The translations under genes and the position numbers were made by a program. From a virus (Duplodnaviria > Caudoviricetes), in the IMG/VR virus record IMGVR_UViG_3300030099_001449, positions 1 to 56,039 of that record: 56,039 bases of DNA; one strand, given 5' to 3'. Shown here piece by piece: positions 28,377 to 51,731 of this stretch. The notes beneath the pieces were generated by a model. It was not told where the DNA came from, did no database searches, and was given only the letters and a program-made list of their open reading frames with translations. Every line of letters begins with the position of its first letter. The first letter of the stretch is position 1.

Positions 28377-31300
28377 ATGAGTGTATATACCAATGATTTA
28401 AGATTAGAAGAGATTGGATCTGGTGAACAATCAGGAACGTGGGGTGATACCACGAATACCAATCTTGAGTTAATAGCAGAAGCTTTTAGTTTTGGAACGG
28501 AAGCAATTACAACAAATGCAGATACGCATACCACTACGATAGCGGATGGTGCAACAGACCCCGGTCGTTCTATCTATTTAAAATATACAGGTACATTAGA
28601 TTCTGCTTGTACTATTACATTAGGACCAAACACTGTAAGTAAAGTCTGGTTTATTGAAAACGCTACCTCTGGGTCACAAAATATTATTATAAGTCAAGGT
28701 TCTGGAGCCAATGTCACAATAGGTAATGGCGCAGTTAAAATGGTTTATAGTGATGGTGCAGGATCAGGAGCCGCCGTTGTTGATGCTTTAGTTGATTTGG
28801 ATCTTACAGGAACTACGACAGTGTCGTCTTTGATTGTTAACGAAGACGGTTCAGATGTAGATACTCGTATTGAAAGTAATAACAACGCAAATATGTTCTT
28901 TGTTGATGGTGGTAATGATGCAGTTGTTATAGGACATAATGATGCAAATGATGGGTCTGTTTCTAGTGCTTTTTCTTTGCAGAATATAGGGACAGATTAT
29001 AATTCAAGCTCAATAGGGTTAGCTAGATTTTCTGCTGATGTAAACGCTCCTACAGTGGCTTTTCATAAAAGTAGAAATGCCTCTATTGGAGGTGACACAG
29101 TTGTTGCAGATAATGATGAATTGGGAAGAATAAGATTTTTTGGTAATGATGGAACTGATTTTGCTGAAGGTGCAAGAATTACAGCTTTGGTAAATGGAAC
29201 TCCGGGTAGTGGTGATATGCCTTCTGAGTTGGTTTTTTCAACTTCTGCTGATGGTGCAGAAAGTCCAACGGCTAGAGTAACAATTAATAGTTCGGGTGAT
29301 CTTATAATTAATTCTACTGGTGGTACATTACAAACAGCTACAGCAGGAACATCAAACTTTCGTGCAGGTGTCAACGCAGGTAATTCTATTACTTCTGGTG
29401 GTAATTATAATGTACTTATAGGTGATGAAGCAGGAACAGCTATTACAACAGGTGATAATAATGTAGCTGTAGGGTATACAGCAGGTGACGCTCTTACCAC
29501 AGGAGGGGTCAACGTAGCGATTGGTCACAGTGCTTTAACAACAGATACTAAAGGAAAAAATAGTATTGCCATTGGGTTTAGTGCCTTAGAAAATCAAAAT
29601 TTTAGTACAGAAACAGATGCTTACAATGTTGCAGTTGGCTCAAAAGCAGGTGAAGCAGTCACAACAGGTATATATAATACTTTAGTTGGTGGACTAGCAG
29701 GAGATGCCTTAACTGATGCTGATTATAACGTAGCGATTGGTGGAAATGCTTTAGGTGCAAATACAGTAGGAAGTAGAATAGTTGCAGTTGGATATGGAGC
29801 TTTAACTTCACATAACCCTGCTACTGCAACAGATTCTTACAATACAGCAGTGGGTATGTTAGCAGGTGAAAATGTTACAACAGGCATAAAAAATACTTTA
29901 ATTGGTGGTTTATCAGGAGATGCACTAACTGAAGGAGCTAATAATACAGCAGTGGGATTTCAAGCATTAACCTCCGATACATTAGGTAGTAGATCAGTTG
30001 CCATTGGACAATTTGCTTTAAACAATCAAAATTTTACCACTGCTACCACTGCGTATAATACGGCTATGGGTTATAATGCAGGTGTAGGTATTACAACAGG
30101 TATACAGAACACTCTAATAGGTGGTTTAGCAGGTGATTCTTTAACAACTGCTGAAAGCAATGTGTGTGTTGGAGTTGGTGCTTTAGGAGCAGAAACAGTA
30201 GGTAGTAGAAATGTTGCTATTGGTGAAAATACTCTTTCGGCTCAATCTAGTGCAACTGCAACTAGTAATTATAACGTAGCAGTCGGTTATAATGCAGGTA
30301 GATATGTCACAACAGGTGTAAGAAATACTATTATAGGTGGACTGGCAGGTGACGCACTTACGGATGCTGATGATAATGTTGCTATTGGTCAATTTGCTCT
30401 GTCCACAGAAACATCAGGCAATAAAACTACTGCAATAGGTACAAATTGTTTAAGTCTTCAACAAGTAGCAGGTGATAGTCATAACGTAGCTGTCGGTTAT
30501 TTTACAGGGTATGCACTCACATCAGGCACTTATAATACACTTATGGGTAACTATGCAGGATATGACCTTCAAACTGGAAATACTAACGTAGCTATTGGCT
30601 ATGGTGCAATGCAAAATGAAGAGGATGGTGATAGGAATGTTGCTGTAGGTTATAATACTTTAGCTACTCAAAAAAATACTACAACTACAGATGTTTACAA
30701 CGTAGCTATTGGTTATCAAACAGGTTATGATATTACAACAGGATTAGAAAATACACTTATTGGTGGTCTTGCAGGAGATAATATCACCACAGGTAGTTAT
30801 AATGTGGCTGTAGGAGTTGGAGCTTTAAGCACAGATCAATTAGGAAGTAAAAGTGTAGCAATTGGAAATGCCTCTTTATTTTCTCAAAATCCTGGAACAG
30901 CAACAGCCATGTATAATGTTGCTGTTGGTCATGTTGCAGGTGAATCTATTACAACAGGAGTTCAAAATACTCTCATAGGTGCGCTTGCAGGAGATGCTTT
31001 AACAACAGGAGCAGCTAATGCGGCTTTAGGTCATGTAGCTTTAACCTCAGACACAAAGGGAAGCAGAGCTACAGCTATTGGTTATGGTGCATTATATGCT
31101 CAAAATTTTACCACTGCCACTGACAATTACAATACAGCAGTAGGGTATGATGCAGGTGGTGCTATCACAACAGGTTTTTATAATACTGTTATGGGTGGGA
31201 TTGCAGGTAATGCACTTACAACTGGTAATTACAATGTGGCAATAGGTACAGATACATTAGGTGCAGATACAAAAGGTAGTAGAACAACTGCCCTAGGTTA

Positions 31301-32282
31301 TGCTGCTTTAAATAGTCAGAATTTTACAACAGCATCAAATACCTATAACACAGCAGTTGGTTTTCAAGCAGGACTTAATGTTACTACAGGAAGTCAAAAC
31401 ACTTTTGTAGGTGGTGAAGCAGGTGAGGCAATTACAACAGGTAATTATAATAATTATTTTGGGTATAATGCAGGTACTTCAACTACTATTGGAGATCACA
31501 ATGTTGGTTTAGGAAGGAGTGCTTTATCAAGTAATGTAGCAGGTAATAAATCAATAGCTATTGGTGATAATGCTTTAGGTAATCAAACAAGTGGAACATC
31601 AGCTGATATGTATAATGTTGCTATTGGTCATCATTCAGGTATTAATGTTACATCAGGAGTAACAAACACTTTTGTAGGTGGTAATTCAGCGGCAGGAAGC
31701 ACATTAACTGGATCAAATAATACTTGTGTAGGGTATGCATCAGGTCATGCTCTTACCTCTGGTAGTAATAATTTATGTTTAGGACATGACGCAGGAAGGG
31801 CAACTTCACCTAGTGGTAATATTACTATAGGCAGTGATACAATTTGTTTAGGTGACAATGACATAAATGATTTGTTTTGTGCAGACACAAGTATTTCTAG
31901 CTCAGACTCTAGAGACAAAACAGATGTCACTAACTTCACTGGTGGTTTAGATTGGGTTAAGGCACTTAGACCAGTTACATATAAGTGGGATAAACGCTCA
32001 TGGTACGGTAATGACGATAATCCTATGGGAACACCTGATGGTTCTAAGAAAAGAAATAGGCTTCATGTTGGATTTCTAGCGCAAGAAGTTTTAGCAATAG
32101 AACAAGATCATGGTTTTGCTGATACGAATGACACAAGCCTTGTTGTTAGAAATAACTTAGACGGAAACAGTTATGGTCTAAAATATGAAAGACTTGTTCC
32201 TGTTCTTGTAAACGCAATTAAAGAACTATCAACAAAAATAACAACTTTAGAAGACGAAATCACTAAATTAAAAGGAGAATAA
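28377..32282 (+). CDS. Tail fibre/receptor-binding protein with beta-helical repeats and C-terminal S74 intramolecular chaperone
   Basis: GTWGDTTNTN anchor; dozens of N.A.G..A repeats; SDSRDK...L.PV.Y.W...GFLAQEV...LVNAIKEL. Confidence 0.9.
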   Translation: MSVYTNDLRLEEIGSGEQSGTWGDTTNTNLELIAEAFSFGTEAITTNADTHTTTIADGATDPGRSIYLKYTGTLDSACTITLGPNTVSKVWFIENATSGSQNIIISQGSGANVTIGNGAVKMVYSDGAGSGAAVVDALVDLDLTGTTTVSSLIVNEDGSDVDTRIESNNNANMFFVDGGNDAVVIGHNDANDGSVSSAFSLQNIGTDYNSSSIGLARFSADVNAPTVAFHKSRNASIGGDTVVADNDELGRIRFFGNDGTDFAEGARITALVNGTPGSGDMPSELVFSTSADGAESPTARVTINSSGDLIINSTGGTLQTATAGTSNFRAGVNAGNSITSGGNYNVLIGDEAGTAITTGDNNVAVGYTAGDALTTGGVNVAIGHSALTTDTKGKNSIAIGFSALENQNFSTETDAYNVAVGSKAGEAVTTGIYNTLVGGLAGDALTDADYNVAIGGNALGANTVGSRIVAVGYGALTSHNPATATDSYNTAVGMLAGENVTTGIKNTLIGGLSGDALTEGANNTAVGFQALTSDTLGSRSVAIGQFALNNQNFTTATTAYNTAMGYNAGVGITTGIQNTLIGGLAGDSLTTAESNVCVGVGALGAETVGSRNVAIGENTLSAQSSATATSNYNVAVGYNAGRYVTTGVRNTIIGGLAGDALTDADDNVAIGQFALSTETSGNKTTAIGTNCLSLQQVAGDSHNVAVGYFTGYALTSGTYNTLMGNYAGYDLQTGNTNVAIGYGAMQNEEDGDRNVAVGYNTLATQKNTTTTDVYNVAIGYQTGYDITTGLENTLIGGLAGDNITTGSYNVAVGVGALSTDQLGSKSVAIGNASLFSQNPGTATAMYNVAVGHVAGESITTGVQNTLIGALAGDALTTGAANAALGHVALTSDTKGSRATAIGYGALYAQNFTTATDNYNTAVGYDAGGAITTGFYNTVMGGIAGNALTTGNYNVAIGTDTLGADTKGSRTTALGYAALNSQNFTTASNTYNTAVGFQAGLNVTTGSQNTFVGGEAGEAITTGNYNNYFGYNAGTSTTIGDHNVGLGRSALSSNVAGNKSIAIGDNALGNQTSGTSADMYNVAIGHHSGINVTSGVTNTFVGGNSAAGSTLTGSNNTCVGYASGHALTSGSNNLCLGHDAGRATSPSGNITIGSDTICLGDNDINDLFCADTSISSSDSRDKTDVTNFTGGLDWVKALRPVTYKWDKRSWYGNDDNPMGTPDGSKKRNRLHVGFLAQEVLAIEQDHGFADTNDTSLVVRNNLDGNSYGLKYERLVPVLVNAIKELSTKITTLEDEITKLKGE

Positions 32283-48973: not shown

Positions 48974-50446
48974 ATGAATGTCAACTACAAATATAAAACA
49001 AAACCATATAAGCACCAAGAGATTGCTTTGCAGAAGTCTCAAGGTAAAAAAGAGTATGGATATTTTATGGAGATGGGAACCGGGAAGTCTAAAGTTTTAA
49101 TAGATGAACTAGGTATTTTGTATTTAAAAGGTGAAATAAATTTTGCTCTAATCATAGCACCAAAGGGTGTCTATCGGAACTGGGTATCCAAAGAGATACC
49201 AGAACATATGTCTCAAGAGGTTCCTCATAGAGTGATTCGTTGGGTAGCTAATCCAAATAAAACACAACAAACAGAACTACAATCCATCAAAAAGTCCTTT
49301 TCCGGTCTAACTATATTCGTCATGAATGTAGAAGCCTTCTCAACTATAAAAGGTAAGAAGGCTGGAGTTTGGTTAGGTGGTGCGCTTGGCAGCTTTGGTC
49401 TTATAGCTATTGACGAATCAACCACAATCAAAAACCACAAGGCCAAACGCTCAAAAAATTTAGTAAATATTTCAGAAAAATTCAAGTACAAAAGAATATT
49501 AACTGGATCTCCAATAACAAGATCACCTCTGGATATCTATCAACAATGTGAATTTTTAAGACCAGGACTCTTAGGACATGAAAACTATTATAGCTTTCAA
49601 GGCATGTATGCTGTTATTAATAGAAGATCTATGGGATCTCATTCCTTTCAACAAGTTGTAGGATACCGAAATCTCGATACTTTAACCTCGCTTCTTGATT
49701 TGTACTCTTATCGTGTACTCAAAAAAGATTGTTTGGATTTACCGGAAAAACTTTATACTGCTAGGTACGTTAGTCTCACTGATGAACAAGCCAGAATGTA
49801 TTCCAAACTTAAAAATGAAGCTATGGTTTTACTTGATAAAGGTGAACTGGTTACTGCACCAGCTATCATCACACAAATGTTACGGCTCCAACAAGTCATG
49901 TCTGGTCATTTAAAAACAGATGATGGTGAAATGGTTTACTTTCAATCCAAAAGAATGGATGCCTTGGAAGAAATACTAGAGGAACATGATGGTAAGTCTA
50001 TTATATGGTCAAGGTTTCGATACGATATCATACAGATAACAAAACGTTTGAATGAAAAGTTTGGACCCAATTCTGCAGCTTCGTTCTTTGGTGATACACC
50101 AGATGAAACGAGACAAAGAATTATTGAGAACTTTCAAAACCCAAATCATCCTTTAAGATTTTTTATAGGTAATCCTGCTACTGCTGGATATGGATTAACT
50201 TTGACACAAGCTAACCTTGTCATTTATTATGCAAATGATTTTAATTTAGATACAAGGATGCAATCAGAAGATAGGTGTCATAGAATAGGTCAGAAAAATT
50301 CTGTAACTTATATTGATCTAATTTCAGAGGGAACGATAGATGAACAGATTGTAAAATCACTTCGTAATAAAATTAATTTAAGTGCAAAAGTATTAGGAGA
50401 GGAAGCAAGGCAATGGCTAAGTCTAAAACCCAAGAGCAATTTATAG
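48974..50446 (+). CDS. SNF2-like SF2 helicase
   Basis: EMGTGKS, IDES, LTGSP and QSEDRCHRIGQ motifs. Confidence 0.9.
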   Translation: MNVNYKYKTKPYKHQEIALQKSQGKKEYGYFMEMGTGKSKVLIDELGILYLKGEINFALIIAPKGVYRNWVSKEIPEHMSQEVPHRVIRWVANPNKTQQTELQSIKKSFSGLTIFVMNVEAFSTIKGKKAGVWLGGALGSFGLIAIDESTTIKNHKAKRSKNLVNISEKFKYKRILTGSPITRSPLDIYQQCEFLRPGLLGHENYYSFQGMYAVINRRSMGSHSFQQVVGYRNLDTLTSLLDLYSYRVLKKDCLDLPEKLYTARYVSLTDEQARMYSKLKNEAMVLLDKGELVTAPAIITQMLRLQQVMSGHLKTDDGEMVYFQSKRMDALEEILEEHDGKSIIWSRFRYDIIQITKRLNEKFGPNSAASFFGDTPDETRQRIIENFQNPNHPLRFFIGNPATAGYGLTLTQANLVIYYANDFNLDTRMQSEDRCHRIGQKNSVTYIDLISEGTIDEQIVKSLRNKINLSAKVLGEEARQWLSLKPKSNL

Positions 50447-50658
50447 AAGCAGTTTGTGATTATAAAAAAGGTTGGACCAATCTAACAAATGCTTCTGCCG
50501 CGATAACAGAAATAAGTGGATTGTCTCCAGAAATAGCTAAAACCTTTTTAAAATATATGAAACGTAACAACGTTACACAAATACGTGGCTACTCGAAAGA
50601 GCCAGAAAGATTATTAAAAGGTAAGAAGGGTAAGCCTAACGAACTTAAATCACGTTAA
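50413..50658 (+). CDS. Hypothetical protein
   Basis: ORF overlapping the end of the helicase gene, same strand. Confidence 0.6.
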   Translation: MAKSKTQEQFIEAVCDYKKGWTNLTNASAAITEISGLSPEIAKTFLKYMKRNNVTQIRGYSKEPERLLKGKKGKPNELKSR

Positions 50659-50680
50659 CGGCGTTAGCGTTAATGTTTTT
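50655..50680 (+). terminator. Weak intrinsic terminator
   Basis: TTAACG...CGTTAA stem followed by TGTTTTT. Confidence 0.4.
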
Positions 50681-50685
50681 AGAAT

Positions 50686-50771
50686 AAAAAAAGGGAAGGT
50701 CATGGAGAGAACCTTCCCTAGTTAAATCCCCACGGGCAAACGAGGGGATTGTTCGGAGGGAAATGTGAACA
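50686..50771 (-). ncRNA. Candidate three-hairpin sRNA with anti-Shine-Dalgarno loops, ending in a terminator
   Basis: Minus-strand stems UGUUC/GAACA, AAUCCCC/GGGGAUU and AGGGAAGGU/ACCUUCCCU plus U-tract; loops ACAUUUCCCUCC, UUUGCC and UCUCUCCAUG. Confidence 0.5.
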
Positions 50772-50785
50772 TGTATCCAAGCATA

Positions 50786-50968
50786 TCATCCTTTTTGATT
50801 CTTGTCTTTTACTATTTCATACAAACTTGTATCAGATTTTATATTCCAAGGGTTATAGCATTGCTCTCCTTGACAACAATCATCTATGATTTGTCTGCAC
50901 ATTTCACATTGTGTGTGACCATGAACGTATAAAGGGTCTCCTTCATGTCCACATCTATTACATAACAT
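50786..50968 (-). CDS. Small Cys-rich protein
   Basis: CNRC...VHGH.QC..C...CC. Confidence 0.7.
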   Translation of the reverse strand: MLCNRCGHEGDPLYVHGHTQCEMCRQIIDDCCQGEQCYNPWNIKSDTSLYEIVKDKNQKG

Positions 50969-51186
50969 TACTCTCTGCCCCCACTAACTGATCTCCATAA
51001 TTCATCCGGTCTCCCCGGTATTGGTTCGTGAACATATTTAAAAGACTTCCAACATCCACCCTCTACATAAGCATCTTTGTGAGCAATTTTTGAAGCAGCT
51101 TCACAGTCTGCTTCAGTCTCAAAATTAAACACCATCAACATACTATACAAGACTACTTGTTTTCCTATAACCGCTCCTTCAAACAT
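50968..51186 (-). CDS. Hypothetical protein
   Basis: Coupled ORF; F.TEADC motif. Confidence 0.6.
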   Translation of the reverse strand: MFEGAVIGKQVVLYSMLMVFNFETEADCEAASKIAHKDAYVEGGCWKSFKYVHEPIPGRPDELWRSVSGGRE

Positions 51187-51349
51187 TTTTTCTAAACTTT
51201 AAATCGTGATATTCTCTGCGGATGATTACAGATAGTTGTCTTGTCATAGTTCTTTGATCCAAGTCTGCAAGTTCTTTTAACTTTTCGTGATCATCCGGGA
51301 GCAAAGCCACATTCCTAAATGGTTGTTCTTTTTTTTCGTCCTTTTTCAT
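51179..51349 (-). CDS. Ribbon-helix-helix DNA-binding protein, 56 aa (not in ORF track)
   Basis: AAGGAG RBS; FRNVALLPDDHEKLKELADLDQRTMTRQLSVII fits the Arc/CopG pattern. Confidence 0.7.
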   Translation of the reverse strand: MKKDEKKEQPFRNVALLPDDHEKLKELADLDQRTMTRQLSVIIRREYHDLKFRKNV

Positions 51350-51479
51350 TTCAATCTCCTTTTAAAACTGTCACACCACTTTTTTCTTTTTTTGTATATT
51401 TTATTTATTTAAAAAAGAATAAAACTAACTGTGACACCTACTAGTTGTAGTTTTGTTATAAATAACTTGTTTATAGGAG

Positions 51480-51731
51480 TCAAGCATCCTGAAATATAGG
51501 TGCAATATTAGTAGCAGCTTTTACTCTCATGGCTCGATACTTGATCATGTCTCTCTTGTCTGCATAGTTTAGCAAGACATGTGCATCAAAGATATCTCCC
51601 GGCTGCACATCCATGCGAGTTACGAGTCGTTCTGATAGAAAGACTTGGTCTCCTTGTTCAGTAATTGCAAATGCACTACCACTATCCGTCAAATACTCTA
51701 CAAGTATTTGTTTTGTTTTTTCTTCATTCAT
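51480..51731 (-). CDS. Hypothetical protein, possibly OB-fold-like
   Basis: GSAFA....GDQVF; ATGA coupling. Confidence 0.65.
   Translation of the reverse strand: MNEEKTKQILVEYLTDSGSAFAITEQGDQVFLSERLVTRMDVQPGDIFDAHVLLNYADKRDMIKYRAMRVKAATNIAPIFQDA

Follow-up and report, generated by a model that had tools for sequence, protein, structure and literature searches.

A putative small RNA gene between convergent operons in uncultured marine phages distantly related to HTVC023P

Introduction

The AbcR and CcsR (cuckoo) small RNAs (sRNAs) act through C/U-rich motifs of the anti-Shine-Dalgarno (anti-SD) type. MicL and DapZ represent another arrangement, with a promoter of their own at the 3' end of an operon and a terminator shared with the mRNA; known examples of such sRNAs come from enterobacterial temperate phages or chromosomes. 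To our knowledge, hardly any phage-encoded small RNAs have been described outside the temperate phages of enterobacteria and a few model lytic phages.

The phage- or prophage-derived sRNAs DicF, StxS, AsxR and P1 c4 are all, according to passages of one source (PMC12197685), from enterobacterial phages, and passages of another (PMC7143759) describe MmgR as an Hfq-dependent trans-acting sRNA of 77 nt with a predicted anti-SD motif. For HTVC023P-type phages and pelagiphages, titles and abstracts in the literature yielded no small RNA.

Here we analysed an intergenic element of a marine phage that an initial annotation had proposed to encode an anti-SD small RNA. On balance, we read this element as a gene for a small non-coding RNA of 70–90 nt on the minus strand (from about 50773 to 50686), and we compare it below with its relatives in other uncultured phages and with the systems just named.

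Results

Genomic setting of the element

The window, that is the whole stretch of DNA analysed, is an entire IMG/VR virus record of 56,039 bases (estimated completeness 96%) with PHROG matches to a DNA polymerase, a primase, two helicases and a DNA methyltransferase. By helicase identity, the closest deposited phages were 023Pt_psg01 (51.7%), DSL-LC04 (49.8%), HTVC023P (45.2%) and HTVC027P (42.3%); judged by such sequence comparisons, the source clade is one of uncultured marine phages that are distant kin of HTVC023P-type pelagiphages. They are related to lytic podoviruses, and their nearest cultured relatives infect SAR11. The element region showed no DNA similarity to deposited phage genomes, and in the closest cultured phages (helicase 42–52% identity) the downstream gene layout differs and leaves no space for the element. 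Elsewhere in the window, a 1301-aa protein (28377–32282, plus strand) carries a C-terminal Peptidase_S74 (endosialidase chaperone) domain and is probably a tail fibre or spike.

The element lies within the replication gene block between a plus-strand and a minus-strand unit that converge on it, as had been proposed. The plus unit comprises a helicase (48974–50446) and an 81-aa gene (50413–50658) whose product has a basic tail; the minus unit contains a small 56-aa gene (51179–51349) upstream and ends with a Cys-rich (CxxC..CxxC) 60-aa gene (50786–50968, stop codon 50786–50788). Because the plus unit possesses its own terminator-like hairpin, found by a consensus scan outside the predicted RNA (hairpin 50652–50670, with its T-run 50652–50680, plus strand), the two hairpins A and B described below are unnecessary for ending plus-strand transcription.

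Both flanking small genes are conserved. The 81-aa protein was found in 80 loci at 51–93% identity to that of the window (100% in the single locus L202), its gene being always convergent with the RNA, and it had no family match in Pfam or PHROGs. The 56-aa protein likewise had no match in either collection; by eye, it resembles a ribbon-helix-helix regulator. In the main clade of relatives, the gene directly upstream of the RNA is a homologue of this 56-aa gene (blastp E 1e-10 to 1e-30); the -35-like element considered below overlaps the final codons of this homologue. Only in the window's subclade do two or three small genes separate the 56-aa gene from the RNA. In the window itself, the 60-aa gene and a 72-aa gene occupy this interval (50786–51186, minus strand), and they look like an insertion that displaced the original promoter context of the RNA.

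Fold and parts of the predicted RNA

The predicted RNA measures about 88 nt (50686–50773, minus strand), its 5' end being placed from the -10-like element (within 2 nt on either side) and its 3' end lying within the U-run. The 88-nt sequence folded at -29.8 kcal/mol (z = -4.38), and none of 200 shuffled sequences did as well; for a longer stretch of 111 nt the energy was -30.7 kcal/mol (z = -3.09), with one of 200 shuffles equally good.

Hairpin A (50692–50719, minus strand; loop UCUCUCCAUG) was called by the consensus scan as the stem-loop of an intrinsic terminator. With 10 pairs (5 of them G-C), an 8-nt loop and TTTTTTT directly after, it has the anatomy of a Rho-independent terminator, and the claim of a minus-strand terminator with a U-tract was borne out. 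The seven U, recognised both in the sequence and by the scan, occupy 50686–50692 on the minus strand (seven A on the plus strand). Over 50300–51500, the scan found two terminator-like sites where 0.5 were expected. Hairpin B (50725–50750, minus strand), a stem AAUCCCC/GGGGAUU closing the loop UCGUUUGCCCGU, appeared in both the minimum-free-energy and the centroid structures. The window's copy presents GCCCGU inside a 12-nt loop, three bases longer than that of its close relative L014, and the relatives present GCCUGU in 9–10 nt.

Towards the 5' end, a weak hairpin C of 4–5 pairs (50751–50770, minus strand; GUUC/GAAC) carries the 12-nt loop ACAUUUCCCUCC. It formed in the 88-nt fold, was missing from the 111-nt centroid and did not form in the five relatives folded from the window's subclade or the main clade (among them L014, L003 and L207). 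The same ACAUUUCCCUCC, read from the sequence, is a C/U-rich 5' segment (50755–50766, minus strand) with an anti-SD-like CCCUCC at 50755–50760. The initial annotation had described three consecutive hairpins: A and B stood, while the remaining one (its hairpin 1, our hairpin C) is marginal, confined to the window and represented in relatives by a free 5' segment. What the window RNA and eight folded relatives have in common is a 5' tail, a hairpin, a linker and a terminator (z = -3.3 to -5.4).

Relatives and covariance models

Relatives were drawn from 80 IMG/VR loci fetched by the helicase and 80 fetched by the 81-aa gene, and reading of their DNA showed that the intergenic layout is shared far beyond close kin. 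In the main clade, the minus strand runs from TTGCnG-17 nt-TAnnnT at the upstream stop codon, through A-CUGCUCG about 7 nt further on and a hairpin with the loop CAYGCCUGUGG, to a linker that often contains CCUC and ends in AACUAG, followed by the terminator hairpin and the U-run. The closest copy, in L014, is 96% identical to the window over 50640–50738, then diverges inside hairpin B; it lies at the same place and was recognised by the model described next.

Whole-element MAFFT alignments gave no RNAalifold structure for hairpin B, the stem falling out of register. Because loop lengths differ, such alignments lose the hairpin, and a gap-free seed was built instead from 10 relatives with 9-nt loops and a 6-pair stem. 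The resulting covariance model (R1) gave 20 matches at E ≤ 1 among the 80 sources of the helicase set (window included). In the 81-aa set, with E ≤ 0.5, it matched 51 of 80 loci. All matches within that limit were on the strand that does not code for the helicase, immediately past the 3' end of the 81-aa gene. Close relatives of the window scored 36.8 (L014), 35.0 (L003) and 20.9 bits (L004).

A second model (R2), built from the 51 R1 matches, was run over the whole window with filters off and gave no match at 50686–50773, all six of its matches (E 1.5–9.9) being elsewhere. Since R2 missed the window copy, it was assigned to the family by its position, strand and architecture and by its near-identical neighbour L014; like the other members, it directly follows the 81-aa gene, converges with that gene, uses the family's strand and ends at a shared terminator. 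We read the window element as a divergent copy of the phage RNA family.

A strict three-part pattern of the element matched 11 viral contigs and none of the bacterial and archaeal genomes searched (185,579 species). A loose pattern scan of viral contigs returned 117 loci, mostly due to chance; the six that proved on reading to be true members were used as extra examples only.

Two variants of the element were noticed on reading. The minus-strand copies in L064 (5662–5766) and L208 (1737–1830) lack hairpin B but have kept the terminator, the promoter-like site and C/U-rich sequence on the 5' side (CUGCUCG in L064, CACUCACUCUCGCC in L208), so that this hairpin may be a dispensable scaffold. In six other relatives (L223:1734–1785, L066, L072, L073, L229 and L258), a conserved insert of 22–30 nt (..GGCUAGG..GCACUGCAACG..) stands between the arms of the terminator hairpin, which makes a much longer terminator stem-loop.

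Covariation and strand

In two alignments that were fitted to the model and therefore favour pairing, hairpin B was paired in 93.2% of cells against 74.6% in shuffles (none of 500 shuffles reaching this value; all six pairs changing on both sides) and in 93.1% against 77.1% (again 0/500; five of six pairs changing on both sides), with 30–63% pairing in slid controls. A check that did not depend on the model agreed: the two arms of one sequence formed 7.1 bp on average, versus 4.6 (sd 1.5) when arms were combined across sequences, and stems of at least 6 pairs were found in 32 of 39 sequences versus 24% of the cross pairs. The 39 sequences contained 26 distinct inner arms.

Wobble pairs pointed to the strand. 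Among 27 distinct model-aligned sequences, G.U cells outnumbered A.C cells by 22 to 6, as fits the minus strand; a count over longer stems showed a weaker bias in the same direction (25 G.U, 12 A.C). An impression of plus-strand G.T pairs, gained from a few related sequences, was reversed by these larger counts (25 vs 12; 22 vs 6). The U-run is present on the minus strand only, and together with the G.U excess and the promoter-like element it supports the minus strand as the functional one, as the initial annotation had assumed. That annotation had also looked to conserved loops on covarying stems as a check; hairpin B showed both (its stem and its GCCYGU loop), and hairpin 1 had no counterpart in the relatives. 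Its further claim, that the element is more than a plain terminator, finds support in the covarying stem, the conserved loop and the promoter-like element of the relatives.

A promoter-like element at the upstream stop codon

In the window, the best promoter-like pair upstream of the RNA is AAGACA-17 nt-TATGCT, a weak one (score 8.5; four of six matches in each hexamer) that the consensus scan did not call (8 of 12 matches, threshold 9). The -35-like AAGACA (50803–50808, minus strand) falls within the last codons of the 60-aa gene and the -10-like TATGCT (50780–50785, minus strand) directly past its stop codon (50786–50788). The counterpart in L014 is AAGACA-17 nt-TACAAT, and the main clade has the same layout as the window, a stop codon followed by TAnnnT. 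Promoter-like scores of at least 8 were reached by 22 of 37 distinct elements versus 8% of 2000 random positions. In 14 of the 37, moreover, CUGCUCG follows the end of TAnnnT at exactly 7 nt, and the predicted start is an A. Because the -35 part falls on the final codons of the upstream gene, coding partly accounts for its conservation; the -10 part is found at the stop codon or past it. From this arrangement, the RNA looks independently transcribed, from a candidate sigma-70-like promoter of its own, rather than 3'-UTR-derived as initially proposed.

Conserved motifs and the anti-SD-like segment

Two motifs are hallmarks of the whole family: the hairpin B loop GCCYGU (almost invariantly GCCUGU) and the 5' CUGCUCG. 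Among 39 aligned distinct elements, GCCYG was present in 35, GCCTGT in 31 and CTGCTC in 26. CCUCC or CUCCC in the 5' part was limited to five of the 39 (the window, L014, L003, L004 and L273, in the last of which it stands upstream of CUGCUCG) and was also seen in L207. Anti-SD loops are therefore not a family feature, contrary to what the window alone had suggested; by its distribution in the alignment, the anti-SD-like 5' segment is a feature of the window's subclade, at the place where the main clade has CUGCUCG. The window, L014, L003 and L207 have the terminator-loop core UCUCCAU in common despite their differing stems, which hints at constraint within this narrow group.

A separate observation concerns a hairpin of the minus-strand operon whose loop contains GACAGGC (L051:7050, L052, L057:6152 and L059:6939), its place being conserved in these four loci. 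GACAGGC is complementary to six bases of the conserved loop of the RNA and could be a kissing-loop partner or a product of chance.

The plus strand

On the plus strand, positions 50755–50768 of the window read GGAGGG, AA, ATG TGA, that is a strong SD-like run, a start codon and an immediate stop, so that GGAGGGAAATG opens a frame of one codon. The corresponding frames have 2 codons in L014, 34 in L004 and 20 in L207; in L003 the frame reads ATG AAA TAG by eye (2 codons), and L014 and L003 both have ATG AAA and then a stop at the same place. The initial annotation had raised the possibility that the plus-strand GGAGGGAAATG is a real translation start; frames of 1, 2, 34 and 20 codons, with no conservation, speak against it. 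The SD-like run and ATG may be a by-product of the minus-strand motif.

Comparison with known RNAs

A search of the window region against Rfam at E ≤ 10 gave nothing near a cut-off, and 11 related loci gave nothing at the gathering score. Five short and 20 longer loci searched at E-value thresholds gave sub-threshold matches only, the best to suhB at 31.4 bits. This nearest family (RF00519, suhB/MmgR; gathering score 41) was matched over the full model by that one relative. Elsewhere, suhB scores were 15.0 bits for the window and 18.3 and 17.3 bits at the element of two relatives; of two further relatives' records, one had a weak match away from the element and the other no match, and 20 further loci had none at E ≤ 10. 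Scores below 20 bits are meaningless here, because all control genomes also gave weak matches.

In anatomy, the phage RNA resembles MmgR/suhB (alpha-r8) of alphaproteobacteria, which has about 77 nt, a hairpin, a U/C-rich single strand with an anti-SD motif and an intrinsic terminator. It differs in that the GCCUGU loop and the 5' CUGCUCG are absent from the suhB consensus, and in being encoded by a phage rather than a chromosome. With AbcR and CcsR it shares C/U-rich unpaired motifs able to pair with SD sequences, but the phage motif stands in the 5' tail instead of repeated hairpin loops and is not conserved across the family. The likeness to AbcR/CcsR put forward in the initial annotation was not upheld, neither RNA being matched through Rfam in the window (E ≤ 10) or in the relatives.

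Like sRNAs of the MicL/DapZ type, the phage RNA would combine a candidate promoter in or just past the upstream coding sequence with a shared intrinsic terminator and a small size, and like DicF, StxS, AsxR and P1 c4 it is of phage origin. Unlike all six, it comes from uncultured marine phages, and it has no sequence or model similarity to any of them.

Titration of an RNA-binding factor, also proposed initially, does not fit for the CsrA type. GGA motifs, the mark of CsrA/RsmA-titrating RNAs (RsmY/Z), occur on the plus strand only, opposite to the predicted RNA, and the RsmY matches of 15–17 bits are restricted to the part of the model that represents the terminator. A likeness between type I-E CRISPR repeats and the terminator stem seen in the main clade was considered and discarded: the stem of the window is unrelated, and a U-run follows.

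Possible targets and expression

SD-like 4–6-mers stand upstream of 44 of 79 ORFs selected by our own simple ORF filter; the host therefore reads SD sequences, and an RNA that carries CCUCC could meet ribosome binding sites. Perfect complementarity to the RNA elsewhere in the phage reached at most 10 nt, at two places, where about eight were estimated by chance, and the best duplex with a phage start region (-15.9 kcal/mol) was equalled or bettered by 88 of 100 shuffled seeds. In the main-clade loci, a search for a second conserved CGAGCAG site gave nothing consistent. No RNA runs are listed as containing the window's stretch, and four metatranscriptome contig sets yielded two short pieces of relatives matching elsewhere in the window and none on the element.

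Discussion

Taken on balance to be a gene, the element would give an RNA of about 90 nt whose 3' end lies at the U-tract; this prediction, originally made from the window, is our best reading of the covarying stem, the conserved loop and the promoter-like element. In the mechanism that we propose, a sigma-70-like promoter at the stop codon of the last minus-unit gene would start a transcript that ends at the intrinsic terminator of the unit. The RNA would consist of a free 5' tail, a stable hairpin with the conserved loop (GCCUGU; GCCCGU in the window), a short A/U-rich linker and a terminator hairpin with a U-tail. It may pair in trans with other RNAs by means of its unpaired, C/U-rich stretches: for the window's subclade, these would be the anti-SD-like CCUCC of the 5' tail, possibly aided by the UCUCCAU terminator loop, and in the main clade the 5' CUGCUCG with the CCUC linker. 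The conserved loop would offer a second contact, for an RNA or a protein.

Structure, conservation, covariation and strand, as well as the promoter-like and terminator elements, come directly from the computations; we infer that such an RNA would accumulate, act in trans and block ribosome binding sites. The anatomy of scaffold, linker and terminator appears to be that of chaperone-dependent sRNAs, and it is from this anatomy that the mechanism is drawn. That the element works as an anti-SD repressor is less likely than that it is a small RNA gene.

Several other explanations bear on the same observations. One is a structured 3' end of the minus operon with no function in trans, serving for exonuclease protection, as a processing mark or for insulation of the converging units. 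It would suit the position of the element at the operon's 3' end, the terminator common to both, the weakness of the promoter-like element in the window and the target searches, which found none. We consider this unlikely, since a stabiliser requires a stem and not a sequence, yet the loop GCCYG (35/39) and CTGCTC (26/39) are kept while the stem varies freely; 14 of 37 elements share a 7-nt spacing between TAnnnT and the motif, and L064 and L208 retain promoter-like site, C/U-rich part and terminator without hairpin B. Chance hairpins around an ordinary terminator are scarcely credible: AT-rich intergenic DNA often folds and hairpin C is weak, but the z-score of -4.4 (0/200 shuffles) and a homologous element at the same place in 51 of 80 loci, with covariation, are hard to reconcile with chance.

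Hairpins that proteins recognise typically combine a covarying stem with a loop that hardly varies, and in the replication block the element is flanked every time by one and the same pair of small conserved genes. It might then be a binding site for a phage protein, with the 81-aa or the 56-aa product as candidate, in the form of an RNA hairpin operator or of a DNA hairpin or cruciform in the control of replication or transcription. This appears improbable. The excess of G.U over A.C (22 vs 6) points to an RNA made from one strand and not to duplex DNA, the promoter-like element and the terminator frame the element as a transcription unit, and protein binding is unsupported because neither small protein has a detected domain. 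Very improbable, finally, is a functional plus strand, in which GGAGG and ATG would open a mini-ORF or the frame of a short hydrophobic type I toxin, with the RNA of the minus strand as antisense antitoxin. In its favour, the window, L014, L004 and L207 (and, by reading, L003) all have a start codon behind an SD-like run, the frames are hydrophobic (53–55 codons in the window, depending on alternative starts, and 18–20 codons in L207 and L014), and the predicted RNA would overlap the SD-like run and the start. The frames, however, share no conserved product such as a type I toxin-antitoxin ORF would have, and the window frame is presumably hydrophobic because it is the codon-for-codon antisense of the Lys/Glu-rich tail of the 60-aa gene. 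The main clade has no SD-like start on the plus strand, no plus-strand promoter was found, and plus transcripts meet the terminator at 50652–50670.

Returning to the small RNA, which remains our preferred reading, a more speculative and rather improbable extension is that of a riboregulator family of abundant marine phages mimicking the 3' end of 16S rRNA, through CCUCCU in the window's subclade and CACCUC or GAUCACCUC in the linker of some relatives. If this were true, the mimic would bind SD sequences and shift translation from host to phage messages, and the subclades would have swapped the seed while retaining the scaffold.

The element would thus represent an RNA gene family of uncultured marine phages that is supported by comparative genomics and absent from Rfam, a compact unit of promoter, seed, scaffold hairpin and terminator. 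With a seed that differs between subclades, it would offer a natural experiment on the retargeting of a phage riboregulator, and, should the anti-SD reading hold, it would be relevant to the way in which host translation is taken over by these phages.
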